Below, in pieces: positions 13,205-29,779 of a DNA stretch of 35,096 nucleotides. This DNA comes from an uncultured Planctomycetia bacterium. Its GTDB lineage: Bacteria > Omnitrophota > Gorgyraeia > Gorgyraeales > Gorgyraeaceae. Each line of letters starts with the position of its first letter. The stretch's first letter is position 1. Location: the NCBI GenBank assembly GCA_964637815.1, contig CAZWYD010000004.1:1-35096 (forward strand), read 5' to 3'. A model generated the notes under the pieces. It was not told the DNA's origin, made no database searches, and saw only the letters and a list, made by a program, of their open reading frames with translations. The position numbers were made by a program, and so were the translations under genes.

Positions 13205-13469
13205 AAAGCCTCACTCCTTTCCTCCAATAACCAGCCCCAATAATTCTGATTTTATCATAACGATATGTAAATCTTACGGTCAATACCTTATCTCCTACTT
13301 TTCCTACACAGAAAAATCTCTCCTCCCCACTGCTATGTTTTGTATCCACATAAATCCTTCTACCAGGATCATTAAACACAAATGTAGCTGTAACAAAATC
13401 AACACCATGCTTAAAAATATTTCCCAATTCTTTCTTCTTATCCCAAATAAAACTAAGTTCTCTCTCCAT
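13185..13469 (-). CDS. BrnT family toxin
   Basis: FIWDKKKELGNIFKHGVDF, HSSGEERF, IRIIGA. Start moved to MERELS (13469) because the annotated TTG is the -35 box. Confidence 0.88.
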   Translation of the reverse strand: MERELSFIWDKKKELGNIFKHGVDFVTATFVFNDPGRRIYVDTKHSSGEERFFCVGKVGDKVLTVRFTYRYDKIRIIGAGYWRKGVRLYEEEKN

Positions 13470-13473
13470 AATA

Positions 13474-13528
13474 ACTATACCATAGATATGGCTATTTGTC
13501 AATATAATTATATGTATAATTATACATA
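13474..13528 (-). promoter_or_regulatory. sigma70 promoter of brnTA with upstream palindromic operator-like sites
   Basis: TTGACA(13502-13497)-N17-TATAGT just before the ATG (leaderless-like); two TATAATTATA palindromes at about 13503-13524. Confidence 0.7.
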
Positions 13529-13550
13529 CTCAGCAAATCTTCTCTCTGTC

Positions 13551-13614
13551 TATATATAAGACACATCAAGTGCCCTATTTTCTTTCAAATATTTTTAGGA
13601 AGGTTTACTACAGA
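13551..13614 (-). repeat. Direct repeat containing TGAAAG-N17-GTGTCTTAT (copy nearest dprA)
   Basis: Nearly identical to 16154-16226, including the distal GTTTACTACAGA. Confidence 0.85.
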
Positions 13615-13651
13615 CAGGTTCCCGATTGGGCCATTAGACGTTGTTCATGTT

Positions 13652-14317
13652 TTATACTAATCTTCGGGACAAGCGGTGTAATTCTAGATTGGCCAGGGCC
13701 ATGACTTTCTTTTTGACTGCCCTAGAAAAATATTCTTTTTCAGTCTTGGTCAGTTTTTCACCTTTGAGCTTCTTTAAAAATAATTCCTTTTGTTTTGGCG
13801 AGAAAACCTGAGACAACGAATATTCAAGTCCTAATTCTTCTTTCAGGGAGAGCAAATCCTTGAGTTCTGAGCGGACATGATTAAAATAATTATTAAATGT
13901 GAGTTTTAATCTCTGGCTGGACATAACCTGCCCTGCGAGCTTAAAATCCTTATCTTTTTTGAGCTTTTTCAGAAAATTGTTAAATTCTTTTTTGCTCTTA
14001 CTGTTCAAATTTTCATAAAATTTACTACTCCAGGAAAACTTTATACTCAATGTGTTGTAAAGAGCAAGAGACATTACTAATAGTGAATCTAAGCGGAGTT
14101 TATCAGGGCTTTTTTTAAGATATCCTTTGGCGACATTGTAATTAAACAATCCTTTTTCTGCGCTATTAGCCAATACAACAGGAAATCCATTCCAGAGACG
14201 AAGGTCTTTACTTTGGACTACGTCAGCTAATACGGCATTAACATCTAGTTCTTCCTCTGTCTCAAGTAGAGAAAAACCAAGTTTGCTTAACTTTTCTAAA
14301 AGACTCTTATTAACCAT
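13652..14317 (-). CDS. Hypothetical basic protein, partner of the nucleotidyltransferase
   Basis: 221-aa ORF overlapping the upstream gene by 8 nt; Lys-rich helical C-terminus (FSPKQKEL...TKTEKEYFSR). Confidence 0.75.
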   Translation of the reverse strand: MVNKSLLEKLSKLGFSLLETEEELDVNAVLADVVQSKDLRLWNGFPVVLANSAEKGLFNYNVAKGYLKKSPDKLRLDSLLVMSLALYNTLSIKFSWSSKFYENLNSKSKKEFNNFLKKLKKDKDFKLAGQVMSSQRLKLTFNNYFNHVRSELKDLLSLKEELGLEYSLSQVFSPKQKELFLKKLKGEKLTKTEKEYFSRAVKKKVMALANLELHRLSRRLV

Positions 14318-14897
14318 TATTCAACCCTTCTTCCTTGACGATTCTCAAAAAATGTCCCAGGTTTTTATTTACCCTGCCCTCTGATACATCAAAAGATGCT
14401 GTTTCTTTAAAGCGTTTCTGCAATATCTTTAGATCTATGTCTTTTTTCTTCGCCTTGATCAAAGAAAGACAATCTTCTATGTCTATCGCGTCCGACCTAA
14501 ATAACTTAGTTATGATAAGGTCGTAGTAATTAAGCACGCCTAGATAAATATGGCTAAACTCCTTTATTAAAATATGGCTATCCTTATCTAATGGCGATTC
14601 TAATAATTCTGTTGTATGAACAAATTTGCCTCTAAACAAATCAAAAACAAAAGCATCTCCCCTTGCCCATCCTGTACCACTCGCAGATTTATATCCAAGC
14701 TGCTGTAGAGTGCTTATAAGATAGTCATATTCATTTAAATTCGGTACAATCAAATCTATATCTTTAGTAGAAGGTTTTATTCCTAAAAGTGTTAGTGCTG
14801 TGCCACCACAGGCAATAAGATACACCTTTCTCTTAAGAAAGCTATCCCATCCGCTAATCCTATCTAATAAGCCCTGTTTATCTATTCTATATATCAT
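14310..14897 (-). CDS. Nucleotidyltransferase-fold protein (DUF6036/AbiEii-like)
   Basis: CGGTAL...STKDIDL NTase signature and C-terminal LIITKLFR...DIED. Confidence 0.75.
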   Translation of the reverse strand: MIYRIDKQGLLDRISGWDSFLKRKVYLIACGGTALTLLGIKPSTKDIDLIVPNLNEYDYLISTLQQLGYKSASGTGWARGDAFVFDLFRGKFVHTTELLESPLDKDSHILIKEFSHIYLGVLNYYDLIITKLFRSDAIDIEDCLSLIKAKKKDIDLKILQKRFKETASFDVSEGRVNKNLGHFLRIVKEEGLNNG

Positions 14898-14936
14898 ACA
14901 ATTATTTGTATATATTTATACAATTCTCTGTATTAA

Positions 14937-14965
14937 AGTATACAGTATTATCCTTAAGATGTCAA
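14937..14965 (-). promoter_or_regulatory. sigma70 promoter of the nucleotidyltransferase operon
   Basis: TTGACA-N17-TATACT. Confidence 0.75.
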
Positions 14966-14994
14966 GCACTAAAAACAATTTTTAAATTTCTATT

Positions 14995-15219
14995 TCATGC
15001 CTTTCTCTTCCTGAGATAGTCATCGAAATCTACTGCAGACTTTTCATCAAGGCGCAGCTTCTTAAGGTCGATCATGTCTTCTATCATCTCTTCACGCTGT
15101 AGCTGCTCCCGCAGGGCCTTTTCTACGAAAAAACCTTGTTTAAGTCCGTGAGAATGACAAAAATCTTTGATCATGTGAATCAGAGACTTCTCGATTTTTA
15201 TTGAAAATACACCTTTCAT
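14995..15219 (-). CDS. Ribbon-helix-helix antitoxin-like protein (orphan)
   Basis: 74 aa, beta-alpha-alpha N-terminus and acidic tail; GGAGG RBS; TTTACA-N17-TATGCT promoter at 15268-15240. Confidence 0.65.
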   Translation of the reverse strand: MKGVFSIKIEKSLIHMIKDFCHSHGLKQGFFVEKALREQLQREEMIEDMIDLKKLRLDEKSAVDFDDYLRKRKA

Positions 15220-15320
15220 GGTTCATCACCTCCAATACAAGCATACCATGAAAAGTATGTTTTGTAAAGTAAAAGTAAGAAAAAGTATACCTTGACCAAT
15301 ATCCATAATCCGTGTCTTCA

Positions 15321-15373
15321 TATATAAGACACATTTCAAGGCGATTTTCTTTCAAATATTTTGGATTTTTTTA
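15321..15373 (-). repeat. Diverged copy of the dprA-upstream repeat (TGAAAG-N16-GTGTCTTAT)
   Basis: TATATAAGACACATTTCAAGGCGATTTTCTTTCAAATATTTT. Confidence 0.8.
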
Positions 15374-15467
15374 ACCAGACCTCATACTCGAACGTAGTGA
15401 GTAGTACGGAGGGTGAGAGGATACGGACAAATTCTCGAACAAATCTAAGGCAGTTCCAATGAAAAGT

Positions 15468-15525
15468 CCGAGATTCGACCTCGGCTTTCTCTAAAAGCTT
15501 GGTGCCAGGTTTAAACCTGGCCTAC
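15468..15525. repeat. Cluster of short REP-like palindromes
   Basis: CCGAG-ATTCGAC-CTCGG at 15468-15484, and GCCAGGTTTAAACCTGGC followed by CTAC at 15504-15525. Confidence 0.6.
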
Positions 15526-15530
15526 TACTA

Positions 15531-15589
15531 CTAACACTCCCCAAGTCCTCGATCATGTTAAGGATAAGGAATCTTCCGATGTCATTCAT
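15531..15589 (-). pseudogene. dprA: Duplicated 5' fragment of dprA
   Basis: 55/59 nt identical to 12913-12971; encodes MNDIGRFLILNMIEDLGSV versus MNNIERFLILNMIEDLGSV, then runs into a palindrome and stops at 15491. Confidence 0.9.
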
Positions 15590-15848
15590 AATGAGTCCAC
15601 ATGCGGATGATCTTCACTATCTTGTATCGCTTTATCACCTGATAAATAATGCGATGGTGAATGTTTATCCTGCGCGAATAAGCGCCTTTTAAATCGCCTA
15701 CTAATTTTTCAAAAGGAGGATGGGCCTGGAATGGATTATGTTTTAGGATCTCGAGTATGGCCTCGGCCTTTGGCCGCAGGCCTGCCTTAGAAAGTTTCTT
15801 GGCGTCTTTCTGGGCCTGTTTTATATAAACAAGTTTCCACTCTACCAT
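15582..15848 (-). CDS. yoeB: Txe/YoeB family toxin
   Basis: PPFEKLVGDLKGAYSRRINIHHRIIY and C-terminal WTHYE. Confidence 0.92.
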   Translation of the reverse strand: MVEWKLVYIKQAQKDAKKLSKAGLRPKAEAILEILKHNPFQAHPPFEKLVGDLKGAYSRRINIHHRIIYQVIKRYKIVKIIRMWTHYE

Positions 15849-16084
15849 TTTAATTTTTTACTGCACTTCTTAATAGGAGTCTTAAGTCCCTTGCGAACAG
15901 ACTCCCTCATGCCCGGTATCGAAAGTAGATACAGGGTCTCCTGGATCGCGCGCCAATCCTCTTCTGATATAAGGATGGCATTATGCCTTTTGCCTGATAT
16001 CTGAATAGGCTCATGCGACTCAGCTGATCTATCCAGCAGCTTATACAAATTAGCCCTGGCTTCACTAGCAGTAAGACTCGTCAT
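15842..16084 (-). CDS. yefM: Phd/YefM family antitoxin
   Basis: ASEARANLYKLLD, ISEEDWRAIQETLYLLSIPGM. Start set at MTSLT after a G-rich RBS. Confidence 0.92.
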   Translation of the reverse strand: MTSLTASEARANLYKLLDRSAESHEPIQISGKRHNAILISEEDWRAIQETLYLLSIPGMRESVRKGLKTPIKKCSKKLKW

Positions 16085-16108
16085 ATCAATCACCCCCCCT
16101 CTACTTAA

Positions 16109-16137
16109 AGCGTACCACATTACGTACGTAATGTCAA
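16109..16137 (-). promoter_or_regulatory. yefM-yoeB promoter with palindromic operator
   Basis: TTGACA-N17-TACGCT with an 18-bp palindrome ACATTACGTACGTAATGT (16117-16134). Confidence 0.8.
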
Positions 16138-16153
16138 GAGGGGCTTTTCTCCT

Positions 16154-16226
16154 TATATATAAGACACATCAAGTGCCCCATTTTCTTTCAAATATTTTAG
16201 ATTTTTTTAGGTGAGTTTACTACAGA
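16154..16226 (-). repeat. Direct repeat containing TGAAAG-N17-GTGTCTTAT (distal copy)
   Basis: Near-identical to 13551-13614. Confidence 0.85.
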
Positions 16227-16228
16227 TT

Positions 16229-17335
16229 TTACATGTTTACTTGAGCAGATCTGCACTGCAAAAGAAAGTCTTTGTAATTATCTAGTCCGACTGGGATATT
16301 TTCTATGGTAGATAAAATAGAAAGGTTGATTTTAAACTCTTGTATTCCTTTATCTATATTTTCAAACTTTTCTTTTATTGATTTTGTTAATCTATTTTTT
16401 TTAAATCCCAATTTATAAGGTAATGTCACTAAACATAAACTTATACCATGAAGTGGAAATGAAATGCTCTCATGTAAGTAATTTTCAGAATTTTTATCTA
16501 TATTAAACTTATGCCTGTTTTGAAAATCTTGTATTTTCTCTCGAACAATCCTATATTGAATTCTAAAATCTTCCTCCTTAGCTTTTACTTCCTCAGTATT
16601 ATTAGAATAATGTTCAAAATATTCTACATACGCCTTCTTGAGCTCTGGGTAATCCTCTTCAAGTAACTTCTTTGCAAATTCTCGAATTGATAAAATTTCC
16701 TGAATAGGGCCTTTTAGTTCCTTAAAATTCTTACTTAGATCCTCGTAGAATACTTTTATATCTGAAACGAAGTTAGTTATAACTTGCTTCATTTCCTCGG
16801 AACCAACGCTATCCAAATCAGCAACGCTTACTCCGGCCGGAAGAAAATCTGTATGTTCACATATATAGGCTACATTCTCTCCCATTTTTGCATCATTTTT
16901 AAGCGAGTTTATTTTATCTTTGTTCTTAATAAAATAACGTATAATTTCAGATACGACATCAAAATTTCTTATTAAGGTATCAATATTTAATTGATAATCT
17001 TTATGCAGTTTATACCACTCTATTTCTGAAGAAATATTGTATAATTTTTTTCTAATACCATCTTGAATATAATCATAAAAAATAGACTCTGCTACCCATA
17101 GGCTTCTTTGTTCTTGATTATACCTTTCAGGATTGTCCAGCTTAGCATCTATTTCTGATAGAACTTTTTGAATATCGCCTATAATTTTAGACTCCTTGAG
17201 TTTAGTAAGACGTTCTCCCGTAGCTTCTGGATCAATTGGCAGGCGTAGGGCAAAACATATGCTATTGAGCAATAAAGTTAGGCCTATTGCTATAAATATG
17301 ATCTTCACATTATACCCTTTTTTAAACATAATCAT
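16229..17335 (-). CDS. AT-rich secreted helical orphan protein
   Basis: 368 aa; basic N-region, hydrophobic core, then CFA-LRLPID; low GC; no recognisable domain. Confidence 0.75.
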   Translation of the reverse strand: MIMFKKGYNVKIIFIAIGLTLLLNSICFALRLPIDPEATGERLTKLKESKIIGDIQKVLSEIDAKLDNPERYNQEQRSLWVAESIFYDYIQDGIRKKLYNISSEIEWYKLHKDYQLNIDTLIRNFDVVSEIIRYFIKNKDKINSLKNDAKMGENVAYICEHTDFLPAGVSVADLDSVGSEEMKQVITNFVSDIKVFYEDLSKNFKELKGPIQEILSIREFAKKLLEEDYPELKKAYVEYFEHYSNNTEEVKAKEEDFRIQYRIVREKIQDFQNRHKFNIDKNSENYLHESISFPLHGISLCLVTLPYKLGFKKNRLTKSIKEKFENIDKGIQEFKINLSILSTIENIPVGLDNYKDFLLQCRSAQVNM

Positions 17336-17416
17336 AATCTAGACAAAAAATAGTCCTTTGTTAAGGCTTGTTAGTAGTCTATTTATTCTTATGTAATTAT
17401 AGCATATAAATAGAAG

Positions 17417-17917
17417 CTATGCAAGGAGTTTTGAGACGTTGTCAACGACCTGGTCTATGGTGAGATTGTCGGTGGAGACGCAGTGGTCTGCTTTCTTGTA
17501 ATAGGGGGCGCGTTGTGCGAGGAGTTCTTGTATTCTTTTCTTTGGATCTGGGACGTTTAGGAGGGGGCGGCAGACATTGCCTTTTGTGCGTTGCATGATG
17601 GTGTCTGGTGATGCCTGGAGACAGATTATGATGCTATTAGGCTTAAGGGTATTGAAATTTTCTTCATCGATTATTGCGCCGCCGCCTGCAGATATGACAA
17701 GGCCTTGTTTCTGGCTCGATGCCTTTACAACTTCTTTCTCGAGCTTCCTGAAGTATGGCTCGCCCTTTTTCTCAAATATTTCCTTTATGGACATGCCCTC
17801 TCTCTTCTCAATGATCGCATCCAGCTCCAGAAACTCACGTCCCAGCTTTTCCGCAAGCCTCCTCGCAACCACAGTCTTCCCTGTGCCCATAAACCCAACC
17901 AAAACAATATTTTTCAT
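17417..17917 (-). CDS. aroK: Shikimate kinase
   Basis: GFMGTGKT P-loop, GEPYFRKLE, GGG, RPLL, RAPYY. Confidence 0.95.
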   Translation of the reverse strand: MKNIVLVGFMGTGKTVVARRLAEKLGREFLELDAIIEKREGMSIKEIFEKKGEPYFRKLEKEVVKASSQKQGLVISAGGGAIIDEENFNTLKPNSIIICLQASPDTIMQRTKGNVCRPLLNVPDPKKRIQELLAQRAPYYKKADHCVSTDNLTIDQVVDNVSKLLA

Positions 17918-17932
17918 AGTCCAAATATAACA

Positions 17933-17971
17933 TAACTTTACATTTAAAGCAAGACCTTAAATGTAAAGTTA
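17933..17971. repeat. 39-bp AT-rich palindrome, copy 2
   Basis: TAACTTTACATTTAA-AGCAAGACC-TTAAATGTAAAGTTA, perfect 15-bp arms. Confidence 0.85.
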
Positions 17972-18019
17972 ACTTAAGAGTTGAATGTCATGATGTTATA
18001 TGGTATGCTTTACGAAAAT

Positions 18020-18604
18020 ATGAAGATAGTTTTGGCATTATTATTAATGTTGGTGCTATTTGTAAATCCTGGATTTACCGTCGAGGTAGAGAACAGGATT
18101 GAATATCTCGTGGATGCGAGAAGCGATGATGGTGACATTGCCCTGGAGCGTTTTTCTATTAGTAAAAAATTTAAAGCAACTGATATAAAGGCCTCTATCT
18201 TTACAGAAGCCCAGTGGAATACAGAAACAGACGATTGGGAAAAGCTACTGGCTGGGGTAGAAGCGAGTAAATCCTTTTGGGAATATTTCTACGTAAGTCA
18301 ATCCATCCAACTCATATCTGGCGAAATGTTAGATTATCTTGTCTTTGATGTAAATGGCCAATCCCTTGACACCACCACTAAAATAGGCGTAAAGCTGCCT
18401 TTTCTGGAAGATTTTAGTCTGAGCATCTTTGAAGAATATTCAGTAAATCTTGAAAAAGGCAGGGATGAATATTGCGAGACCATTGCTGAAGTGCAATACG
18501 CGCCTGTGGACTTATTTTCAGTTGGAATTGGCTGGCGTCACACAGATAGGATTCACGCCCTTGATACTGACTACGTGAGTACGTCTTTTACTTTAAGATT
18601 TTAG
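18020..18604 (+). CDS. Putative outer-membrane beta-barrel protein
   Basis: Signal peptide MKIVLALLLMLVLFVNPG, alternating amphipathic strands, C-terminal SFTLRF. TTGAAT-N17-TATGCT promoter at 17981-18009. Confidence 0.7.
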   Translation: MKIVLALLLMLVLFVNPGFTVEVENRIEYLVDARSDDGDIALERFSISKKFKATDIKASIFTEAQWNTETDDWEKLLAGVEASKSFWEYFYVSQSIQLISGEMLDYLVFDVNGQSLDTTTKIGVKLPFLEDFSLSIFEEYSVNLEKGRDEYCETIAEVQYAPVDLFSVGIGWRHTDRIHALDTDYVSTSFTLRF

Positions 18605-19636
18605 GCTGGATAAATACCCCTCGTAATTCCTTTTTATTTCTAGAACACTATCCCCGCCGAATTTTTCAAGCAAGGCCTGAGCTATGGTGAATGCACACAC
18701 AGCTTCACCAACAAGGGCTGCTGCAGGGACAGCGCACACGTCAGAGCGCTCTGTGGCTGCTTTGGTAGGTTCTTTCGTAGAAATATCTATTGTGTTTAGT
18801 CCCTTCATCAACGTGCTTATGGGTTTCATGTAGCCGCGCACGATTATATCCTCGCCATTTGAGATGCCGCCCTCTATGCCGCCGGCATTGTTTGTCTTTC
18901 TGTAAATGCCTTTTGCCTTGGAGTAAAATATCTCGTCGTGCACCTTTGAGCCGAGTTTTTTCGAAGATTCAATAGCGTTACCGATTTCAACTGCCTTGAT
19001 AGCTGGTATGGACATGATAGCTGAGGCAAGTCTTGCATCTAAGCGCCTGTCACTGTGTACGTAACTACCCAGGCCCACTGGTACGCCTTTTATTGCAACC
19101 TCGAATAGCCCGCCGAGCGTATCCTTTTTTTCCTTTGCGCTGTCTATTTTTTCTTTCATCTTATCTTTTGAACCCGTACCGCCTATCATTGCTACGTGAC
19201 TCGATAAGCGTATCTTAAATCCCTGTAAAAGGAGTTTGCAGACTGCGCCTATTGCAACGCGCATGGCTGTTTCCCGTGCAGAAGCACGCTCAAGCGCAGG
19301 ACGGGCATCCTTGAAGCCGTATTTTAAAATTCCGACGAGGTCTGCATGGCCAGGCCGTACATTTTTTACATCAGGGAGTTTGTCTATTGAAGCGTCATTA
19401 TTTTCTATGAGGATAGATATTGGGCTACCGATAGTGAGGCTGCCTTTTAATCCAGACAGGATCTTTGCGTGATCCTTCTCTATCTTCATTCTAGCACCAC
19501 GACCATGACCTTGCTGACGACGCTTGAGCTCATTATCTATAAAGGTCTTGTCTACCTTTAGCCCGCTAGGCATACCTTCTAAAATACCAACAAGTGCTTC
19601 ACCATGTGATTCACCAGCAGTTAAAAATCTTAACAT
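18593..19636 (-). CDS. aroC: Chorismate synthase
   Basis: MLRFLTAGESHG, RPGHAD, ERASARETA, GGISNG, RSDVCAVP. Confidence 0.97.
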   Translation of the reverse strand: MLRFLTAGESHGEALVGILEGMPSGLKVDKTFIDNELKRRQQGHGRGARMKIEKDHAKILSGLKGSLTIGSPISILIENNDASIDKLPDVKNVRPGHADLVGILKYGFKDARPALERASARETAMRVAIGAVCKLLLQGFKIRLSSHVAMIGGTGSKDKMKEKIDSAKEKKDTLGGLFEVAIKGVPVGLGSYVHSDRRLDARLASAIMSIPAIKAVEIGNAIESSKKLGSKVHDEIFYSKAKGIYRKTNNAGGIEGGISNGEDIIVRGYMKPISTLMKGLNTIDISTKEPTKAATERSDVCAVPAAALVGEAVCAFTIAQALLEKFGGDSVLEIKRNYEGYLSSLKS

Positions 19637-19650
19637 CTTGCACCTCCATA

Positions 19651-20421
19651 TCAATAAAGAAATAATAAACTTAATATTTTGTGACCCCAGATCATTGCGA
19701 CAAAGCTGGCCAACGCTATATAGGGCCCATATGGGATTATATCCTGTTTTTTCCTAAATTTCAAATACAGTCCTGCAGGCGTGCCAAAAAATGGCGCGAG
19801 AAAAAATATGAGTATTGCCATTTTCCAACCCAGAAAAGCACCCAGCATGGCCATGAGCTTTACATCTCCCCCGCCCATGCTCTCTTTATGAAATATGAGC
19901 TGGCCAACGTAACCTGTGAGATATATGAGTCCGCCACCCGCAAACATGCCCAATAGAGATTTTATAAATCCTGCCTCCCATGTAAAAGCATTATGAAGTT
20001 GCGGTATAAAGACGCTTAAGGCGATTCCTAAAACCAGTCCGCCAAGACTAATCCTGTCAGGTATGATCTGAAATTCCAGGTCGACAAAGGTTGTTACAAT
20101 AAGGCTAAATGTCACTAAGCTGTAGATCCAGAACTTCGCAGTCAGTCCAAAATAATAAAATAGTGTTAAAAATGCGAGTGCACTTATGAGTTCAACTACA
20201 AAATACCGAAAGGGTATTCTTTTTTTGCAATGCCTGCACTTGCCCATTAAAATAATATAGCTTAAGAACGGGATATTATCGTACCAAGGTATTGGCTTTT
20301 TGCAGGCGATGCATCTTGAGCCAGGCACAACAACAGACTCCTTGCGCGGCATCCTGTATATACACACGTTCAAGAAACTCCCAATCATTGAACCAAAGAT
20401 AAAGATTAGTAAATATATCAT
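19651..20421 (-). CDS. pilD: Type IV prepilin peptidase (A24)
   Basis: GSFLNVCIYRMP, two CxxC pairs, MGGGDVKL, IPYGPYI. Confidence 0.93.
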   Translation of the reverse strand: MIYLLIFIFGSMIGSFLNVCIYRMPRKESVVVPGSRCIACKKPIPWYDNIPFLSYIILMGKCRHCKKRIPFRYFVVELISALAFLTLFYYFGLTAKFWIYSLVTFSLIVTTFVDLEFQIIPDRISLGGLVLGIALSVFIPQLHNAFTWEAGFIKSLLGMFAGGGLIYLTGYVGQLIFHKESMGGGDVKLMAMLGAFLGWKMAILIFFLAPFFGTPAGLYLKFRKKQDIIPYGPYIALASFVAMIWGHKILSLLFLY

Positions 20422-21209
20422 GTTATGGCCTTTCGCATCACATCTATAGGTGCGGGTTTGCCTGTCCAGAATTCAAAGGCATGCGCGCCTTGATACAAAA
20501 GCATGCCAAGACCGCCTGTTGCACGCGGTTTTGCTGCTTTGACTAAATCTGTTTCTCTATTGTATACAACATCATAAACGAATAGATTCTTATGAAATAA
20601 TTTCTTATCTATAGGAGAACTGTCGCCCTGTTTCATACCTATGGGAGTAGCATTTACTAAGAGCTGGCAGTCCTTGATTATCGTTGGTATTTCCTTAGCG
20701 GAAATGCGCTGCACCTTGCCTGCAGATTTTATTGCATCTGGATTGCTGTCGTATGCGTATATTTTCTGAACATCCTTGGAAAGACCAGCAATAACTGCTC
20801 TGCCAGCGCCACCACAGCCTATCAAAAGCACATTTTTATCTTTATGGTCGAACTTCAGGTCCTCTTTAAGTGAAGTCAGGAATCCAGCTACATCTGTATT
20901 TGCATATTTCAGTTTATTGCCTTCTCGCTTCACTGTATTAATAGCATCTAAACCTCGGCAACCTCGTAGGTTGCCATTCTGGCAACCTACGAGGTTATCT
21001 AGTATCTGCTTTGCCCTTACTTTGTAAGGCACAGTTACATTGAATCCCAGAACATCTTTTCTGTTGAGTAAAAAATCCTCGAGCTCGGTGGGCTTTACTT
21101 CGAATTTGCGGTATTCAGCGTCGATGCCGAGTGCTTTGAACGCAGCGTTGTGCATTGCTGGAGATAAGCTATGTTTTACTGGCCAGCCAATTATACCGTA
21201 AGTGTCCAT
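20418..21209 (-). CDS. aroE: Shikimate dehydrogenase
   Basis: HSLSPAMHN, NVTVPYK, NTD, GCGGAG, NATPIGM, GLGMLLYQG. Confidence 0.95.
   Translation of the reverse strand: MDTYGIIGWPVKHSLSPAMHNAAFKALGIDAEYRKFEVKPTELEDFLLNRKDVLGFNVTVPYKVRAKQILDNLVGCQNGNLRGCRGLDAINTVKREGNKLKYANTDVAGFLTSLKEDLKFDHKDKNVLLIGCGGAGRAVIAGLSKDVQKIYAYDSNPDAIKSAGKVQRISAKEIPTIIKDCQLLVNATPIGMKQGDSSPIDKKLFHKNLFVYDVVYNRETDLVKAAKPRATGGLGMLLYQGAHAFEFWTGKPAPIDVMRKAIT
20960..20996. repeat. GTAG-type palindrome in frame inside aroE
   Basis: AACCTCGTAGGTTGCCA-TTC-TGGCAACCTACGAGGTT; 16-bp arms identical to intergenic 30339-30374. Confidence 0.9.
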
Positions 21210-21227
21210 AATTAAAAGTGGGAATTG

Positions 21228-22760
21228 CTAGAGTTCAGCTGTGGCTTTGCGTGTCTTGGTAAAGAGTACCTTGTTTACTGCGTTTACGTAGGCCTTGGCG
21301 CTTGCCTCGACTATGTCAGTAGATGCGCCGCGACCAGATACTTCGATGCCCTTTGAAGATCTTGCCCTTACAGAAACTTCTCCCAAGGCGTCCTTGCCGC
21401 CTGTTGCAGCTTTTAAGGAATAATCCAGCAATTCTAGCTTCACGCCTGTTATCTTTTCAATGGCCTTGTAGCACGCATCCACAGGCCCGTCTCCTGAAGA
21501 GGATTGTTTCTTTTTGACTCCGGATTTTACGATCTCTATTATGGCATGCGGCTCGATATTCTTGCCACTCCTATATTCAAATCCTGTTATCTTATAGGTC
21601 TCAGGTATGGAAATGATCTCGTCCTCTACTATTGTCAGGAGATCCTCGTCAAATACCTCTTTTTTCTTATCTGCAAGATCCTTAAATCTCTGGAACGCCT
21701 TTACTAGATCATCTTTTTCTAATTCAACGCCTAGCTTCTTCAGCCTTTCGCTAAATGCATGCTTTCCAGAATGTTTTCCCAATACAAGCCTTGTAGCAGC
21801 AAAACCTACGTCCTCGGGCTTCATGATTTCATAAGTAGCGCGCTTTTTCAGGATCCCGTCCTGGTGAATGCCTGCCTCGTGACTGAATGCATTGCGGCCT
21901 ACTATTGCCTTGTTGGGCTGGACTACAATGCCTGTGAGTTTACTTACAAGACGACTTGCCTTGTAAAGCTCGGCTGTATTTATAGATGTAGCGCATTTAA
22001 AAATATCCTGCCTGGTCTTAAGCGTCATTACTATTTCTTCTAGTGATGCATTGCCTGCGCGTTCGCCAAGCCCGTTTATCGTGCATTCGATCTGGCGAGC
22101 TCCATTTTGAATCGCTGCAAGAGAATTGCTAACACCGAGCCCAAGGTCATTATGACAATGTACACTTATTATCGCCTTATCTGAATTCGGGACTTTTGTC
22201 TCTATAGTCTTTATGAGCTTGCCGAATTCAGCTGGTGTTGCATAACCTACTGTGTCAGGTATATTCACTGTCTTTGCACCAGCTTTTATCACTGTCTCGA
22301 CCACGCGGCACAAAAAATCTATTTCTGAGCGCGAGGCGTCTTCTGGAGAGAATTCAACATCATCAGAAAATTTGCGGGCATATCTTACGAATTCTCCTGC
22401 CTGTTTTAATATCTCTGACTCTGCCTTTTTTAATTTATACTGCATGTGTATCTTTGAAGTGGCCAAAAATACGTGGATTCGCGAACGGGCTGCGTTCTTA
22501 AGCGCATCTTTACAGCGGTCTATGTCTTCTTTTTTTGCCCTGGCAAGGCCGCATATGGATGGACCTTTGACTAGGGAGGCGACTTCGCTCACTGCCTGAA
22601 AATCACCAGTTGAAGCAATGGGAAATCCTGCCTCGATTACGTCAACACCAAGGCGCGCAAGCTGTTTGGCAATCTCTATCTTTGCCTTTATGTCCAGGCT
22701 CGCCCCCGGCGACTGCTCTCCATCACGTAAAGTTGTATCGAAGATAATTATTTTCTTCAT
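21228..22760 (-). CDS. leuA: 2-isopropylmalate synthase
   Basis: [39 protein letters not shown]. Confidence 0.96.
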
Positions 22761-23746
22761 TTAATCCAGTCCATCATGCCGCGGAGTTTTCTACCGATTA
22801 CCTCAACAGGATGGGTGTCGTCTGCTTTTCTTAATTTAGTAAATTCAGGTCTGCCGTTTTCATTTTCTTTAATCCACTCTCTGGCAAATCTTCCTGACTG
22901 GACCTGCTTCAAGATCTTTTTCATCTCTTTGCGCGTTCGCTCAGTTATGACCCTTTTGCCGCGTGTAAGATCTCCGTATTCTGCTGTATCTGAAACTCGT
23001 TTGCGCATACCTTGAATACCTGTTCTGTAAATCAAGTCTGTGATCAATTTTAATTCATGTAGACACTCAAAATATGCTATCTCTGGCTGATAACCAGCTT
23101 CTATCAATGTATCAAAGCCTGCCTTGATCAGCTCAGTAGCTCCACCGCACAGCACAACCTGCTCGCCAAAAAGATCTGTCTCTGTCTCTTCCTTAAATGT
23201 AGTCTCAATAACGCCTGCCCTTGTGCCGCCAATACCTTTTGCATATGCAAGGCCCAGCTTAAGCGCATCGCCGCTTGCATCCTGAAATACAGCTACTAGA
23301 CACGGTACGCCTTTTCCCTCTTCATACATCTGTCTTACAAGCGCGCCAGGGCCTTTTGGAGCCACCATAAATACGTCTACTTTTTTTGGCGGCTTGATCT
23401 GCTTAAAATGTATGTTAAAACCATGAGAAAAAACCAAGGCCTTTCCTTTTTTAAGATTCGGTTTTATTGCGTCTTTATAGACCTTTGCCTGCACATGATC
23501 CTGCGTAAGGATCTGTATGATGTCGCCCTGTTTAGCTGCACTGGTCGCGGCAACCGGCGTAAAACCATCAGCCTGCGCAGTCTTGTAATTTTCTGTTCCT
23601 TCTAATTCGCTTACGATCACATCAAGTCCGCTCTCACGCAGATTCAATGCCTGGCCGCGGCCCTGAATACCATAGCCAATGATCGCGATCTTTTTTCCAT
23701 TTAAAACATTTAAATCAGCATCCTTGTCATAATAAATCTTTGCCAT
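22757..23746 (-). CDS. ilvC: Ketol-acid reductoisomerase
   Basis: [31 protein letters not shown]. Confidence 0.97.
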
Positions 23747-23749
23747 TGA

Positions 23750-24223
23750 TTATTTCCTCCCCATTGCGATACGGCCAGTGCGTACTACCTCAGCAATGCC
23801 GAACGGCCTGATCATCTCTATGAAAGACTTTATCTTATTCTCATCACCTGTTACCTCTATAACAGCTGTGTCTTTCTTTGCGTCATCTATCTTTGCCTGA
23901 AATGTATCTGCTATCTGCAAGATCTCAGAGCGATTCTTAGAATCCATCTTGACCTTCACAAGAATCAATTCCCTGTCTATAAAATCCTCTTCTGTAAGAT
24001 CGATAACCTTTATGGTATCTATAAGCCTATTAAGCTGCTTCTTGACCTGCTCTAATGTCTTTTCATCTCCGTCAACAACAATGGTCATCCTCGAGATAGA
24101 CGGGTCCTCTGTCTCTCCTACAGTGAGACTATCGATATTAAAACCTCGCGCGCTAAAAAGTCCTGATACATGTGTTAACACGCCAAAGTGATTCTCGACT
24201 AAAACAGATATAGTTTTTTTCAT
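23750..24223 (-). CDS. ilvN: Acetolactate synthase small subunit
   Basis: VENHFGVL, RGFNIDSL, RELILVKV, VRTG. Confidence 0.95.
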   Translation of the reverse strand: MKKTISVLVENHFGVLTHVSGLFSARGFNIDSLTVGETEDPSISRMTIVVDGDEKTLEQVKKQLNRLIDTIKVIDLTEEDFIDRELILVKVKMDSKNRSEILQIADTFQAKIDDAKKDTAVIEVTGDENKIKSFIEMIRPFGIAEVVRTGRIAMGRK

Positions 24224-24224
24224 G

Positions 24225-25895
24225 TTAGGCGAGCGCTCCTATCATTTTATTAATGGGCTGGCCTGCCGGCACCATTGGAAACACATTCTCCTCTGGCTCA
24301 ACGCGAAAATCCATGAGAACAGGGCCCTTTATACCTAACGCCTTCTTTATTGCCTTTTTAACATCTGATTTCTTGGTAATCCTCATGCCAACTGCGCCAT
24401 ACGCCTCTGCAAGTTTCACAAAATCAGGGCATGACTCCAGCATAGTATGCGAATATCTTTTCTTGTAAAAAAGTTCCTGCCACTGCCTGACCATGCCCAG
24501 ACAACCATTATTCAGAATAGCGATCTTAATAGGCAGTTTATTTGCAACAGCTGTTGTGAGCTCCTGTATATTCATCTGGATACTCCCGTCGCCAGCGATA
24601 TCAAAGACCGTCTTCTTGGGACAGCCCAACTGTACGCCTATTGCTGCTGGAAATCCATAACCCATTGTGCCAAGGCCGCCGCTTGATACGAATTGCCTGG
24701 GCGCGTCGTATTTATAAAATTGCGCGGCCCACATCTGATTCTGTCCGACTTCAGTAGCGATAATGGCCTTGCCTTTTGTAACATTGTAGATCTCTTCCAC
24801 GACATACTGCGGCCTGAGCTTTGAATCATTCTTATAGCTTAGCGGAAATTTCTTCTTCCATGATTCGATCTGTTTGTGCCATTTGGAGATATCTGGTTGC
24901 TTTATATATTTATTGAAATCTGTCAGCACGCTATTCGCGTCACCCACAACAGGTATGTCCACCTTTACATTTTTACTTATTGCGCACGGATCTATATCAA
25001 TGTGTATTATCTTTGCGTGTGGCGCGAACTCATCTATCTTGCCAGTGACCCTGTCGTCGAATCTGGCGCCCACTGCTATTATTAGATCGGAGTCCTGCAC
25101 AGCGTGATTCGCGTATGCAGTGCCATGCATGCCAAGCATGCCAAGAGAAAGTTTATGCGTGCCAGGAAATGCGCCCAGACCCATGAGTGTCATTGTAACA
25201 GGTATGCTTGTTTTTTTGACAAACTCTGCCAGATTATCTGTTGCGCCTGAGATGATCACTCCGCCGCCAACATATAGGAGCGGCTTTTTGCTATTCGCGA
25301 TCAGCTTACAGGCCTTTTTTATCTGCCCGATATGGCCTTTGCACGTCGGCTTATAGCCTCTTATGTCTGCGGTTTCAGGATATTGAAAATCTGTCTCCTG
25401 TATCTGGATATCAACAGGTAGATCCACGACCACTACGCCTGGCCTGCCAGTTGATGCTATGTGAAACGCATTCTTGATGACAGTCGTCAGATTCTTAACA
25501 TCCTTTACAAGGTAGTTGTGTTTTGAGATGGGCCGCGTTATGCCGCTGACATCTACTTCCTGGAATGCGTCGTTTCCTATGAGAGCGGTCTTGACCTGGC
25601 CTGTAAAAGCAACTATTGGCACAGAATCCATGTTAGCTGTTGCAAGGCCTGTGATAAGATTTGTTGCGCCAGGACCAGAGGTGGCAAGGCAGACCCCGAC
25701 TTTTCCAGTGGCGCGTGCATAGCCATCTGCTGCATGCGCTGCGCCCTGCTCGTGCCTTGTTAATATAAATTCGATATCGCTGTCATATAGGGCATCAAAA
25801 ATAGGCAAGACCACCCCACCAGGGTAGCCGAACATAACCTCAACACCTTGCTTCTTAAGCGATTCAATAAATATCTTTGCGCCTGTCATTTTCAT
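24225..25895 (-). CDS. ilvB: Acetolactate synthase large subunit
   Basis: [35 protein letters not shown]. Start at MKMTGA with ATGA overlap to ilvD. Confidence 0.96.
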
Positions 25896-27550
25896 CGTAC
25901 CTCTAATATTGCGCCTTTGGAGGCGGAACTTACTAGCCTTGCGTATCTGGAAAGCCAGCCATGCTGAACCTTTGGCCTGGGCTGGCGCCATTTCTTTAAA
26001 CGCCTTTTTATCTCAGCCTTGGATAGATCCACGTCCAAGCGCCTCTTTTTTATGTCAATCTTGATCCTGTCGCCATTCCTTAATATAGCAATTGGCCCGC
26101 CCTTTGATGCCTCAGGCGCAATATGCCCTATGCACGGCCCGCGAGTACCACCTGAAAACCTGCCGTCAGTGATAAGTGCAACGTCATTGGACAGACCCAT
26201 GCCCACAATAGCTGATGTAGGAGAAAGCATCTCTCTCATGCCAGGGCCACCGTTCGGACCCTCGTAGCGTATGACAATAACATCACCCTTTTTCACTTTG
26301 CTGTTCAGGATAGCGCTCATTGCAGCTTCTTCAGAATCAAAAACCCTTGCCTTGCCTTTAAATAGCATTGCCTCTTCATCCACTGCACCTTGCTTTACGA
26401 CACTACCTTCTGGCGCAATGTTTCCCTTTAATATTGCAATGCCGCCCTCCTCTTTATAAGGATCATTCAGAGGCCTTATGACATCTTCATCATAAATCTT
26501 GCCAGCTTTTGCAATTTTCTTGATCGACGCACCGCAAACCGTTGGATTGTCGCTCAATTTTAGCTGAAGCCTATTCAAGACAGCTGGAATGCCGCCTGCG
26601 ATCTCAAGGTCCTCAAGAAAATATTCTCCGCTTGGCCTGAGATCACATATCTTTGGCGTCTTGCGGCTTATCTTATCAAAAGTAGCCAGTGGTAGATCGA
26701 TTCCTGCTTCTTTTGCGATCGCTGCAAGATGCAAAACCGTATTTGTAGATCCGCCCAGCGCCATATCCACCATAATCGCATTCAAAATGGATTTTCTATT
26801 AATGATCTGGCGCGGCTTCACATTCTTTTTAACAAGTTCAATGATGCGCTCGCCGCTCTCGAATGCAATCCTTGCCTTTTTGCTCGAAACAGCTAAAGAT
26901 GTTGCGCAGCCAGAAAGCGACATGCCCATTGTCTCTGTGAGACAGCTCATTGTATTGGCAGTAAAAAGTCCCTGGCACGAACCTGGGCCAGGACACGCAT
27001 TGGTCTCCAGTTCATCCAGGTCATGCTTTGAGATCTCGCCCTTCTTGTATCTGCCAACTGCCTCAAATGCATCGTGGACAAGGTCTAATCTCTTACCTTC
27101 GTAATGTCCAGTAAGCATCGGGCCTGCTGTCACGATGATGGTAGGCACATTGACTCTTGCACATGCCATGAGCATGCCAGGTGTGATCTTATCGCAATTC
27201 GTAAGAAGTACTAGCCCGTCGAGGCTATACGCGCCTGCCATTGTCTCAATAGAATCTGCTATGAGCTCCCTTGATGCAAGCGAATACCGCATGCCAAAGT
27301 GGCCCATTGCAATGCCATCGCAGATAGCAGGCACACCGAATATAAACGGCCGACCCCCTCCTGCATAAACGCCATTTTCAATCGCACGCTCAAGACCCCT
27401 CATGTGTATGTGTCCAGGCACAAGATCACTAAAGCTCGACGCAATGCCGATGAAAGGCTTTTGCATATCTCTTTTAGAACAGCCTGTTGCATATAAAAGT
27501 GCGCGATTCCCAACCCGCGAGATACCTTTTTTAATAATATCACTCTTCAT
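25892..27550 (-). CDS. ilvD: Dihydroxy-acid dehydratase
   Basis: [36 protein letters not shown]. Confidence 0.97.
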
Positions 27551-27561
27551 ATTTTCCTCTC

Positions 27562-28524
27562 TCAATAAACCTCTATCTTCGCCTTGCTCCTTAATTCAGT
27601 GACAAATTTTTGCAGCACTTCTCCTCTGCGCTGATTTAATAAAAATCTCTCGATATCACCTGCAACCTCTTCGTAACTCAATGTCCTAGGCGTCTGCTTG
27701 TCCGCAATCTTTAGAATATGATAGCCAAACTGTGTCTCGACTATCTGGCTTATCTGTCCTGCTTCCAGACTAAACGCAGCATCTTCAAACGGTTTTACCA
27801 TCGCACCTCTTCCAAAATAACCCAGGTCCCCGCCATTCGGGGCTGAGCCATCCTGCGAATTTGCCTTTGCCAGCTCTGCAAAATCCTCGCCTGATAAAGC
27901 CTTTCTTCTTAAATCCTCTATCTTTGCCTTTGCCGCATTTTTATCCTCGTCACTTGCATCCGGCTTAGCCATAATCAATATATGACTCGCCTTTACCTGC
28001 TCAGGGACACTAAGCTTATCTTTATTTTTCTCATATTCCTGTCGTTTATTTTCCTCACTTACAGTAACACCAACATAGATGTCTCTATCCAGAAATGCCT
28101 TTATGTAGAGCCCCTTCTTTATGTCATTTTTGAGTTCTTTTTCGCTCACGCCTCTTTCTTTTAAAACCTTCTTGAATTCAGCCTTTGAGGCAAATCCATT
28201 TTTGATATTTTCAAGCTGTTCCTTCACCTTATCATCCAGATTATCCAGGCCAGCCTTTTTGCTCTCCTGATATAAAAGCTCCGCAGAGATTAATTCCTCT
28301 AGTATCTGTACGCGCAGCTTATCCTTATCTCCTTCATTGGTCTGCATGCCCATCATCTTTTGATTCGCAATAAAATTATCGACCGCGGCCTCGAGCGTCG
28401 TATTCTTGACCTTTACACCATTCACCTTTGCTGCATATTTTGAAGCAGCACTACTAGATATAGCAAAACCAAGTGCCAATACTAAAACCAGAGATGCAAA
28501 GATACCAATCTTACGCATACGCAT
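27562..28524 (-). CDS. Exported parvulin-type peptidyl-prolyl isomerase (SurA/PrsA-like)
   Basis: Signal peptide, [37 protein letters not shown]. Confidence 0.9.
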
Positions 28525-28574
28525 TGTCTCTCCTTTTGTTATGGCCCTTCCGAGCCTATTATCATTAGCTATAT

Positions 28575-28603
28575 ATTATGCCACCTAGGATAAGAAAATA
28601 CAA
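28575..28603 (-). promoter_or_regulatory. sigma70-type promoter for the PPIase-ilv-aro operon
   Basis: TTGTAT-N17-CATAAT with extended TG. Confidence 0.55.
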
Positions 28604-28623
28604 TAGGTTTTTTATAGTCATAC

Positions 28624-28653
28624 CTGTCATTGCGAGCGAAGCGAAGCAATCTC
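28624..28653. repeat. 30-bp dispersed repeat, intergenic copy
   Basis: CTGTCATTGCGAGCGAAGCGAAGCAATCTC; 29/30 identical to the reverse complement of 34091-34120. Confidence 0.9.
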
Positions 28654-28666
28654 TTTACCCAGTATT

Positions 28667-28745
28667 ATGGGGCGCGGGGTATTCTGTTCGCGGGCCCCTC
28701 CGCCCGGTGTAGATCCTCCCACTCACAGAACACCCCACGCCCCAC
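28667..28745 (-). ncRNA. Candidate structured small RNA (three-way junction)
   Basis: GC-rich island in AT-rich DNA. 21-bp closing stem whose three non-Watson-Crick pairs are G.U only on the minus strand; two inner hairpins. Confidence 0.5.
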
Positions 28746-28821
28746 TTATATATCGAAGGTTAACTTTTAAAATTAGCTTACATATCTCGATTTGAAAGAA
28801 AGGGTTGCTGACGCTGCAGGA

Positions 28822-29676
28822 TTAGATATCGGTTTGTTTCTGAAGTAGGTCGTTAATACTCGTTACACCCATCTGCTTTGCTATATATTCATCAACTGCG
28901 GGTATAGAGAATAACCCGTTATTGTCAATCTGCATAATGCGGTCTTCCTTATAATACTCTTTTATGTAATAGTCATAAAGACCTTTTTTGTCCCTCTCCC
29001 TATTGGTGCTAAGTTCCCCTAACAAGATATGAACCGTATTACCTTTTAAGCCGACCAATGTGAATAAATCTATCATATATAAATCTTGATGTATATGCTC
29101 TGTAGAAATAAAATCTTCCGTATCTTCTGCCTTAATAAAAACATCAAAATGATTTGTAAGAGTATGCTGACCAAACTTCAAATACTTTCCATGCAATCTA
29201 CCCAATTGAAACCCTAAATCTTCTTGTCCTTCCAGCCATTCATGCACAGCTTTCTCTTTCCATTCTCTAAACAGTCTAGCACCCTCTGCATTTTTTGCAA
29301 GACTCCCCCATTCGCCTGATTGTTCCCACGAATCAACAACCTTCGTATTCCACAAATTCAACATCTTGCCTAATTTATTTCTTAGCTTCAAGTATTCTTC
29401 TATATCAACCTTGCTTATTTCTTTGCTATCTTCAAAGCTAGTGTACAATTTACTAAGCAATGTAATATAGTCCTTATAATCTGGATATATTTTTTCAATC
29501 AATTCTGGAATAGACATCTTTAACAGCATGGCTTCGTCAAACTCATCATAATCTCCATCAATATGCACTCGCAAAGTATAATCTTGTGCATAAACAGGTA
29601 ATGCATAGCATAACATAGCTATCGTCAATATAACAAATGTTGATTTTGAATTCTGCGCTTTTCTAATCATCTTCAT
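28822..29676 (-). CDS. AT-rich secreted orphan protein
   Basis: 284 aa; signal peptide ending VYA, then QDYTLRVHID; TGGTATAAT promoter at 29749-29741. Confidence 0.75.
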   Translation of the reverse strand: MKMIRKAQNSKSTFVILTIAMLCYALPVYAQDYTLRVHIDGDYDEFDEAMLLKMSIPELIEKIYPDYKDYITLLSKLYTSFEDSKEISKVDIEEYLKLRNKLGKMLNLWNTKVVDSWEQSGEWGSLAKNAEGARLFREWKEKAVHEWLEGQEDLGFQLGRLHGKYLKFGQHTLTNHFDVFIKAEDTEDFISTEHIHQDLYMIDLFTLVGLKGNTVHILLGELSTNRERDKKGLYDYYIKEYYKEDRIMQIDNNGLFSIPAVDEYIAKQMGVTSINDLLQKQTDI

Positions 29677-29779
29677 AATTTAGCTAAAATATTAGCCTTT
29701 CCTTAGTCCTTAAAAGGAAAAGGCTTATCTCACTTATATAATTATACCACAGAAATATGATATAAACAAGAAAAGCTTT

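Follow-up and report, generated by a model that had tools for sequence, protein, structure and literature searches.

A promoter, RNA leader and signal-peptide-like header shared by genes with unrelated payloads: a candidate expression and address label in Omnitrophota

Motif-bearing, specialised Sec signal peptides are known as the YSIRK-G/S, the KxYKxGKxW (accessory Sec) and the ESPR type (autotransporters, TpsA). Targeting segments that act after Sec are known as well, such as N22 of CsgA for CsgG and the TPS domain for TpsB, as are signals at protein ends, such as the beta-signal of outer-membrane proteins, PDZ ligands and KDEL/PTS1. In the eukaryotic secretory pathway, PEXEL (Plasmodium) and RxLR (oomycetes) are host-targeting motifs, and the vlp/vsp families of Mycoplasma and the upstream homology box families of Borrelia consist of surface lipoproteins whose switching mechanisms are known. 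The Omnitrophota, an abundant and uncultured phylum of very small bacteria, are believed to live on other microbes. Here we analysed a stretch of 35,096 nucleotides (nt; the window) from an Omnitrophota genome (contig CAZWYD010000004.1, assembly GCA_964637815.1), in which two genes, A (16229-17335, minus strand, 368 amino acids, aa) and B (28822-29676, minus strand, 284 aa), have a promoter, an RNA leader and an N-terminal protein header in common and differ in the payload that follows. We propose, with a probability of about 0.55, that both belong to a lineage-specific gene set with a common label for expression and address, in which export and sorting are predicted from the sequences. The set comprises at least 15–36 genes here, and a near-complete relative has as many as 49.

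The assembly (1.33 Mb, hereafter G000) is 74% complete and has a GC content of 41.4%. Leader copies were searched in it with nhmmer (six seeds, E < 1e-4), and headers with a profile of the first 60 residues (E < 0.01) followed by a refined profile (A1). A covariance model of the leader (R1) had the leader of gene B, and not that of gene A, among its seeds. Column statistics were taken from a wider set of 155 header proteins, 132 of which could be anchored, and the domain census of the payloads covered 90 of the 155 (250–1300 aa). For comparison, 30 related genomes were searched, 18 of them from the same family, with G001 and G002 from the same genus as G000, together with 147 genomes sampled from other families of the phylum. 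The parts of both genes are as follows:

16229-17335, minus strand: gene A, open reading frame (ORF) of 368 aa with the header and an orphan, mostly helical payload; C-terminus ...QVNM; header hidden Markov model (HMM) E = 1.3e-14
17231-17335, minus strand: coding part of the gene A header, aa 1-35, with MIMFKKGYNVK, hydrophobic core, CFA, then LRLPID
17336-17389, minus strand: 5' leader of gene A, with an A/T-rich stretch, a hairpin (17352-17368), six T (17345-17350), a 9-nt spacer (17336-17344) and no Shine-Dalgarno site
17396-17424, minus strand: promoter of gene A, with TTGCAT, 17 nt, then TG-C-TATAAT; extended -10 element at 17396-17404
28822-29676, minus strand: gene B, ORF of 284 aa with the header and an orphan payload; C-terminus ...QTDI; header HMM E = 1.1e-13
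29557-29676, minus strand: coding part of the gene B header, aa 1-40, with MKMIRKAQNSK, hydrophobic core, VYA, QDYT, then LRVHID
29677-29735, minus strand: 5' leader of gene B, with a hairpin (29694-29725), an interrupted T-run ending at 29686 and a 9-nt spacer (29677-29685)
29741-29749, minus strand: extended -10 element of gene B, TG-G-TATAAT

What the two genes share lies at their 5' ends. The full-length proteins are not homologous (BLASTP E = 1.8), and the alignment of the two 75-nt upstream regions beats 1999 of 2000 shuffles and likewise 1999 of 2000 GC-matched genomic windows. The 17-mer TG(C/G)TATAATTA(C/T)ATAAG, found at 17404 and 29749 on the minus strand, has four matches in the whole genome, and AAGCCTT..AAGGACTA occurs genome-wide at the A and B loci only. 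When an upstream-only nhmmer model was built from 17 other copies, without A and B, it recovered A at E = 2.8e-12. The covariance model scored 44.9 bits (E = 2.1e-6) on the leader of A and 66.7 bits on that of B, the latter being one of its own seeds. The original prediction had described a common promoter, leader, T-run, CTA(G/A)ATT spacer, ATG, N-termini that align without gaps and the segments FALRLPID/YTLRVHID, all of which were found in place. The outcomes that it had named as speaking against a family did not occur: the similarity exceeds that of shuffled controls, further members exist, and the pair are not full-length paralogs. Its further idea of a dispersed family with a constant expression/export header and a variable payload is borne out by the whole genome: the module of promoter, leader and signal was found in 21 places, header frames numbered 33 with the first-60-residue profile and 36 with profile A1, and among 528 pairs of mature regions just one, a tandem pair on contig C5, was similar at E < 1e-3.

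The header of the wider set starts with the consensus M-(I/M/L)-K-(F/I)-(K/N/R)-K-x-Y-N-L-K-I-I-S, and its conservation reaches 99% in column K6, 82% in N9, 86% in I12 and 81% in F21 of the core (132 of 155 proteins anchored). Three to four Lys/Arg are found in the n-region, while the flank after the core is about neutral. An uncharged run with a median of 13 residues (range 10–20) is followed by N-(S/T)-T-x-Y-(G/S/A), with small residues at -3 and -1; the triplets at this site are SYS, AYS, AYA, GYA, VYG and similar in most of 28 proteins, and AYP and DYT are atypical. Judged by sequence, these are the features of a Sec-type signal peptide with a signal peptidase I site, and we infer from them that the proteins would be exported and cleaved. 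The SurA-like peptidyl-prolyl isomerase (PPIase) and a 207-aa protein (17981-18604) have plain signal peptides with no header match.

Other types of signal were considered and rejected. For a type IV prepilin signal, the residues after K6 (D 26%, G 23%, A 20%) and I/V instead of E at +5 do not fit; a lipoprotein signal would need a Cys, of which there is no conserved column in 31 or in 155 headers; and a Tat signal is contradicted by the n-region consensus M-x-K-F-x-K-x-Y-N-L-K, which has no RR. The accessory-Sec (KxYKxGKxW), ESPR and YSIRK types were dismissed, as none of the Pfam or NCBIfam families extends over the header in the 33 + 90 proteins scanned.

Zero to 10 residues after the predicted cleavage site, 154 of the 155 proteins have the pair L-R, which is invariant in all 31 aligned sequences and which is followed in the wider set by V/I (65%), P (83%) and L/I/V (82%). 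Six different Leu and five different Arg codons are used for it, and this free synonymous choice indicates that the constraint acts on the protein. In genes that were chosen by their upstream DNA alone, L-R was present at residues 30–39 in 18 out of 18. The motif had been proposed as LRxxID, a possible sorting signal for a second secretion step; its LR part stands, its ID part does not, and the conserved form is L-R-(V/I)-P-(L/I/V), here called LRxP-hydrophobic.

The other end of the proteins is marked too, by a tail of the form (N/S/D)-(L/I/V/M)-COOH (A ends in NM, B in DI). The last residue is L/I/V/M in 24 of the 32 header proteins with a complete 3' end, as opposed to 26% of 518 other long ORFs (p = 1e-8), and the same four account for 27% of all residues in the header proteins themselves (terminal enrichment p = 2e-8). 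N/S/D at position -2 is found in 22 of the 32, compared with 13% of the other long ORFs (p = 9e-13), and both features occur together in 18, where 1.5 would be expected. Each tail feature was also present in 15 of 19 genes chosen by leader DNA, and an L/I/V/M ending in 103 of 132 proteins of the wider set.

At the level of DNA, every copy of the module has its own complete promoter, consisting of the extended -10 element TGnTATA[A/C]T and a TTGAAA-like or weak -35 element; that of gene A overlaps the aroK stop codon and matches the consensus at only three of six positions, which is why a consensus scan left this promoter unlisted. Similar TGnTATAAT promoters also stand 5' of ordinary genes with Shine-Dalgarno sites on contigs C2 and C87, so the promoter part is not specific to the header family, and the element that A and B do share, as had been noted, is close to the general strong promoter of this organism. 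Long near-identical promoter stretches are common to gene A and the copy at C76:1194. As a separate observation, header codons 8-9 (Tyr-Asn, e.g., 17309-17314) usually read TA(T/C)AA(T/C), a -10-like hexamer inside the coding region.

The leader of about 55 nt consists of an A/T-rich stretch, a hairpin (typically UAGCCUU..AAGGCUA), an immediate tract of six to eight U, a spacer and AUG. Hairpin and U-tract were found in most of 40 copies, and the spacer, which has GAUU at its 3' end, is free of gaps in 38 of the 40 aligned copies (9 nt for A and B). A GGAG/GAGG in the usual place precedes one of 19 leader-type genes, compared with 354 of 725 long ORFs that have a possible start with such a site. 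The hairpin positions pair in 79.5% of the cells of the alignment versus 71.5% in shuffles, a value reached by none of 500 shuffles; cells with double changes numbered 26 where 10.9 were expected, and slid controls paired 29–64% of cells. The predicted fold has -3.4 kcal/mol for the leader of A and -12.6 kcal/mol (z = -3.3) for that of B. In two variant leaders, promoter, hairpin and U-tract are kept and the start codon lies about 45 nt farther downstream, in one of them after a short upstream frame and a Shine-Dalgarno site, which favours a role at the transcript level (attenuation, stability) over one tied to the start codon. No leader match was obtained in Rfam at the gathering score, where three tRNAs were the only matches of the window; the leader is a new candidate RNA regulatory element, absent from Rfam. 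At G000 C15:1-135 and C13:12074-12190 (L023, L018), a variant leader has, past the hairpin and U-tract, a frame of about 11 codons that follows the usual start position. This frame closes with AGGAG and a stop codon that overlaps the true start, and M-x-K-F-x-K-x-Y-N-L is missing from the header there.

Most payloads have no Pfam family. Those that could be annotated in G000 include an M23 peptidase, HEAT, a beta-propeller, HATPase_c, ManA+HAD+PRTase, an acyl-CoA dehydrogenase, GT4, radical SAM, REC, HTH_8, a transaldolase-like protein and one acetate kinase (370 bits to ackA), and the census of the wider set added TPR, protein kinase, MutS_V, carbamoyltransferase, epimerase, PPDK_N and pentapeptide. 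Members are mostly 120–1300 aa long, and relatives have the header on open frames of up to 4266 aa. The AckA with the header is an extra paralog, about 45% identical to the AckA of relatives, which have no header and whose match begins near residue 45 of the query; a fragment of the canonical AckA, at the end of contig C3, is 81% identical to the copy in G002. The header itself has stayed conserved between genera in which AckA has diverged to about 45–50% identity. A second genomic copy is present for the acyl-CoA dehydrogenase as well. The GC content of all 33 header genes lies below that of the genome (30–41%, mean 35.2%). For gene A no Pfam or NCBIfam family matched, and its relative in the same-genus genome G001 covers the C-terminal half only, at 74% identity; for gene B neither a Pfam family nor a relative among the 30 related genomes was found. 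AlphaFold2 run without alignments gave unusable models for both (mean predicted local distance difference test score 34.8 for A and 41.3 for B), and a search of the ESM Atlas with the mature parts of A and B returned no usable match. Three header genes in a row on G000 C6:18518-24781 (HTH_8 protein, transaldolase-like protein, extra AckA) look like an operon, in which the downstream two genes use Shine-Dalgarno sites and not the leader.

The label is confined to a narrow lineage. Of the 18 genomes from the same family, 17 had headers (36 matches in G000, 49 in G001, 35 in G002 and 41 in G018), as did the single genome that represents the sister family; single weak matches appeared in 2 of 11 other families of the class, and none of the 147 genomes from other families of the phylum had a match at E ≤ 1e-6. 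The distribution of the leader is similar, with R1 copies in 17 of 18 family genomes versus 0 of 12 outside (15 in G000, 31 in G001, 23 in G002, 23 in G018). A word-indexed protein search with the header profile retrieved just eight proteins, the one named match being 'Candidatus Omnitrophica', and an exhaustive profile search of 1.84 billion cluster representatives yielded 826 at E ≤ 1e-3; among the 150 matches listed (52–3963 aa), the header match starts within the first 29 residues in all. Eight public runs contain the DNA; all DNA runs are labelled marine or seawater metagenome, and there is no RNA run among them.

Within the genus, cargo is exchanged at sites that persist, as seen from gene swaps at greA and from a mosaic A locus. 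In three other genera (G005, G018, G008), greA directly adjoins the gene of the SurA-like PPIase, and in three species of this genus the gap between them holds a header gene, of 284 aa, 347 aa and 141+301 aa, respectively. The three payloads at this site are mutually dissimilar, while the GreA proteins are 88–90% identical. Both genes had originally been described as AT-rich insertions between housekeeping genes, which agrees with their GC content (30.3% for A, 34.7% for B) and, for B, with this synteny. At the aroK locus of G001, a header remnant with 76% identity follows immediately 3' in an 84-aa frame, and a second header gene of that genome has the C-terminal half related to that of A. 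In contigs from four metagenome runs that match both loci, no differences and no length variant of the T-run were seen at a depth of about 5, contigs being prone to drop rare variants. The assembly breaks at headers, with copies at the ends of contigs C84/C48 and C8. The 84-aa header frame of G001 (L087, 2736-4876 on G001:C2) is followed by an overlapping, out-of-frame, headerless ORF of 637 aa; either the header gene is frameshifted or the assembly is wrong here. A junction in a low-depth contig of runs X1 and X3 links position 17350 (leader of A) with 17927, by a palindrome, through 35 other letters; this joint, which skips aroK and the promoter, may come from a related strain or be a repeat artefact.

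The following mechanism would connect these parts. The header would act as a Sec-type signal peptide, which signal peptidase I would remove by a cut behind Y-(G/S/A), and cleavage would expose LRxP-hydrophobic near the new N-terminus. As L, V/I and L/I/V alternate in it, the segment may be strand-like and could dock by beta-augmentation. A step after Sec would then read the LRxP stretch together with the hydrophobic C-terminal tail, for passage of the outer membrane, retention at the surface or processing. This step might be served by secretins or PDZ proteins: five secretin-domain genes were found in G000 (on C3, C58, C70, C115 and C130), which is many outer-membrane channels for so small a genome, as well as three PDZ-domain proteins, and a prepilin peptidase gene lies in the window. 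Hairpin and U-tract would be a shared cis-regulatory element, most likely a partial terminator of the attenuator type, that switches the whole set together, and recombination that joins the header module to other genes would give rise to new members.

How does such a label compare with the described systems? Like the YSIRK, KxYKxGKxW and ESPR signals, it would mark a subset of exported, often very large proteins, and its n- and h-regions are conserved beyond the needs of export. Unlike them, it matches no model in Pfam or NCBIfam, has no second SecA that is consistently present, adds a post-cleavage motif, a C-terminal tail and an RNA leader, and is confined to one Omnitrophota family. With PEXEL and RxLR it has in common a near-invariant short Leu/Arg motif a few to a few tens of residues past the signal peptide, on unrelated, fast-evolving proteins of a host-dependent organism; it differs in that the organism is a diderm bacterium, the motif is LRxP-hydrophobic and delivery to another cell is here only hypothetical. 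CsgA N22, TPS domains and C-terminal end signals are likewise short terminal peptides that direct a second sorting step, and the tail ends hydrophobic, as PDZ ligands do; there is no sequence likeness to any of these, however, no receptor was identified, and the tail is only about 2–5 residues long and not aromatic. The constant 5' expression/export cassette, divergent mature parts and turnover of cassettes recall the vlp/vsp and Borrelia families, and effector regulons with shared promoter boxes are also among the nearest known things. A polymorphic toxin system was rejected, as the header has about 45 residues and not some hundred, no toxin domains were found and the payloads vary over their whole length. 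Beyond general signal-peptide features, the label has none of the defining features tested for these nearest systems.

Within the phylum itself, giant multi-enzyme proteins have been described with N-terminal signal peptides or membrane helices, and type II/IV secretion genes and a Rotamase_2 PPIase lie near their genes, according to the available parts of two preprints (bioRxiv 10.1101/2023.11.21.568195; 10.64898/2026.06.07.730766). The payload repertoire given there (HEAT, HATPase_c, radical SAM, HAD, GT1, REC, PPDK_N) resembles ours. Unlike in our set, whose members are mostly shorter, no header, LR motif, tail or leader is described in those parts, and the words 'motif' and 'sorting' are absent from the text available for the second (bioRxiv 10.64898/2026.06.07.730766). 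No description of the label was found in the literature on Omnitrophota signal peptides and effectors, with preprint supplements outside the search.

Several observations weigh against a labelled, exported and co-regulated set. The leader of B reached only E = 0.085 in the upstream-only model built without A and B, which makes it a divergent copy. The alignment behind the covariation test had been fitted to the covariance model, so that the test favours the hairpin structure, and the control slid by +1 still pairs 64% of cells; the hairpins are weak on average (mean dG -7.3 kcal/mol, mean z -1.3), and a scan for consensus promoters and terminators called neither copy in the window. In the genome, 74% complete as it is, there is no consistent second SecA (additional matches to SecA_DEAD are inconsistent and fall within giant frames), a single NusG without a paralog and no CsrA, and no partner was identified for the LRxP motif or the tail. 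Many payloads, furthermore, need ATP, NAD, FAD, S-adenosylmethionine (SAM) or Fe-S clusters or bind DNA, among them AckA, ManA-HAD-PRTase, acyl-CoA dehydrogenase, radical SAM, GT4, REC, HTH_8, protein kinase and MutS_V; such proteins are not expected to work in the periplasm, and the chains that Sec exports are unfolded. A cargo in need of cofactors that only a cytoplasm offers would either act in another cell or have a header that does something other than export. As a side note, the SecA_DEAD-like domains sit in frames of 8,190–15,222 aa (G001:C30, G004:C13, G027:C4, G022:C17).

The first of these two options leads to a bolder proposal, which we put forward tentatively and regard as improbable on present evidence. 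The two-ended tag, i.e., signal peptide plus LRxP-hydrophobic at one end and (N/S/D)-(L/I)-COOH at the other, might mark the full cargo set of an undescribed delivery route of a nanosized, host-dependent bacterium, by which ATP-, NAD- and SAM-dependent enzymes, kinases and regulators would cross both membranes into a prey or host prokaryote or another compartment, with the leader as a common switch that fires all of them at once. Such a route would be for bacteria what PEXEL/RxLR targeting is for eukaryotes. The phylum Omnitrophota has been proposed to live by predation or parasitism, which fits the host-associated or predatory life that had been suggested from the two genes.

The payloads, which look like cytoplasmic enzymes and regulators, could also be explained if the header were an uncleaved signal-anchor that tethers them to the cell's own inner membrane and so organises membrane-bound metabolism instead of secretion. 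Many long proteins with the same domain repertoire are indeed read as membrane-anchored in the accessible text of one preprint (bioRxiv 10.64898/2026.06.07.730766). A hydrophobic run with a median of 13 residues is, however, on the short side for a transmembrane segment, and a cleavage-type site stands at its end. The three to four positive charges of the n-region against a near-neutral flank would, by the established positive-inside rule, place the payload outside and not in the cytoplasm. Moreover, the header-bearing enzymes are extra paralogs and not the housekeeping copies, and the C-terminal tail would be left without an explanation, so that we consider such tethering unlikely.

Payload replacement at a fixed site within one genus and the mosaic locus of gene A in G001, with its header remnant and shared C-terminal half, are what would be expected of cassettes for antigenic variation, in which the 5' module would be a handle for recombination and expression of a changing coat, as in Mycoplasma vlp/vsp or Borrelia; assembly breaks at headers (contig ends C84/C48 and C8) and the homopolymeric T-run in the leader point the same way. 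We nevertheless hold this to be quite unlikely: there is neither a lipobox nor a repeat-rich mature region, each copy has a complete promoter of its own, the invariant LR and the tail go unexplained, and both loci, including T-run length, were constant in the four metagenome runs (at a depth of about 5, in contigs that drop rare variants). A phase-variable lipoprotein family of the vlp/vsp type was rejected on the same absence of a lipobox, shared repeats and variation in four low-depth runs, and on its enzyme payloads. As a further alternative, the header could be an ordinary signal peptide, typical of the lineage, whose copies have stayed alike through recent duplication and gene conversion, with no sorting information in LRxP or the tail. 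This would account for the near-identical promoter stretches of some copies (gene A and C76:1194) and for TGnTATAAT before unrelated genes. It seems the least probable of all, given that the header is conserved between genera with strongly diverged AckA, LR is invariant despite free codon choice, the enrichment of the tail far exceeds what composition predicts and other exported proteins of the same genome do without the header.

If A and B do belong to a set with one label for expression and address, the finding bears on where the strange multi-enzyme and giant proteins of Omnitrophota work. With features that can be recognised in DNA, RNA and protein, the label provides a genome-readable list of 15–50 proteins per genome that would be treated alike, and a handle for simple tests such as reporter fusions or the search for terminal peptides in metaproteomes. 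Enzymes of housekeeping type appear to be copied and re-addressed, and within one genus the cargo set changes from species to species; genes that take part in interactions with other organisms typically show such a pattern. Should the delivery route exist, the full effector set of any member of the family could be read straight from its genome.

Some further elements lie near the two genes. Upstream of aroK, at 17933-17971, there is a perfect 39-nt palindrome with an 18-bp stem that recurs in about 81 genomic places, many of them 100% identical, and whose bin has a word depth of 93–177 in metagenome contigs versus about 5 elsewhere; it looks like a repetitive extragenic palindromic (REP)-like intergenic element or a bidirectional terminator. 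A role as 3' boundary of the cassette was rejected, since just 2 of the 33 header genes have the palindrome in the 300 nt downstream. Another repeat, GC-rich and about 54 nt long, is located at 28701-28754, in the gap between gene B and the gene of the PPIase. Further copies of it stand 5' of the header gene on C49, and on C106 and C7, and metagenome contigs cover its bin at raised depth. Gene A stands at the edge of a low-GC island (13200-17400; 29–43% per 600-nt bin, mostly 29–35%) that contains a YoeB/ParE-like toxin (15582-15848) with a Phd/YefM antitoxin (15842-16120) and a DUF6036 nucleotidyltransferase (14310-14897) next to an unassigned partner ORF (13652-14317). Toxin-antitoxin and DUF6036 modules also follow header genes in G001.

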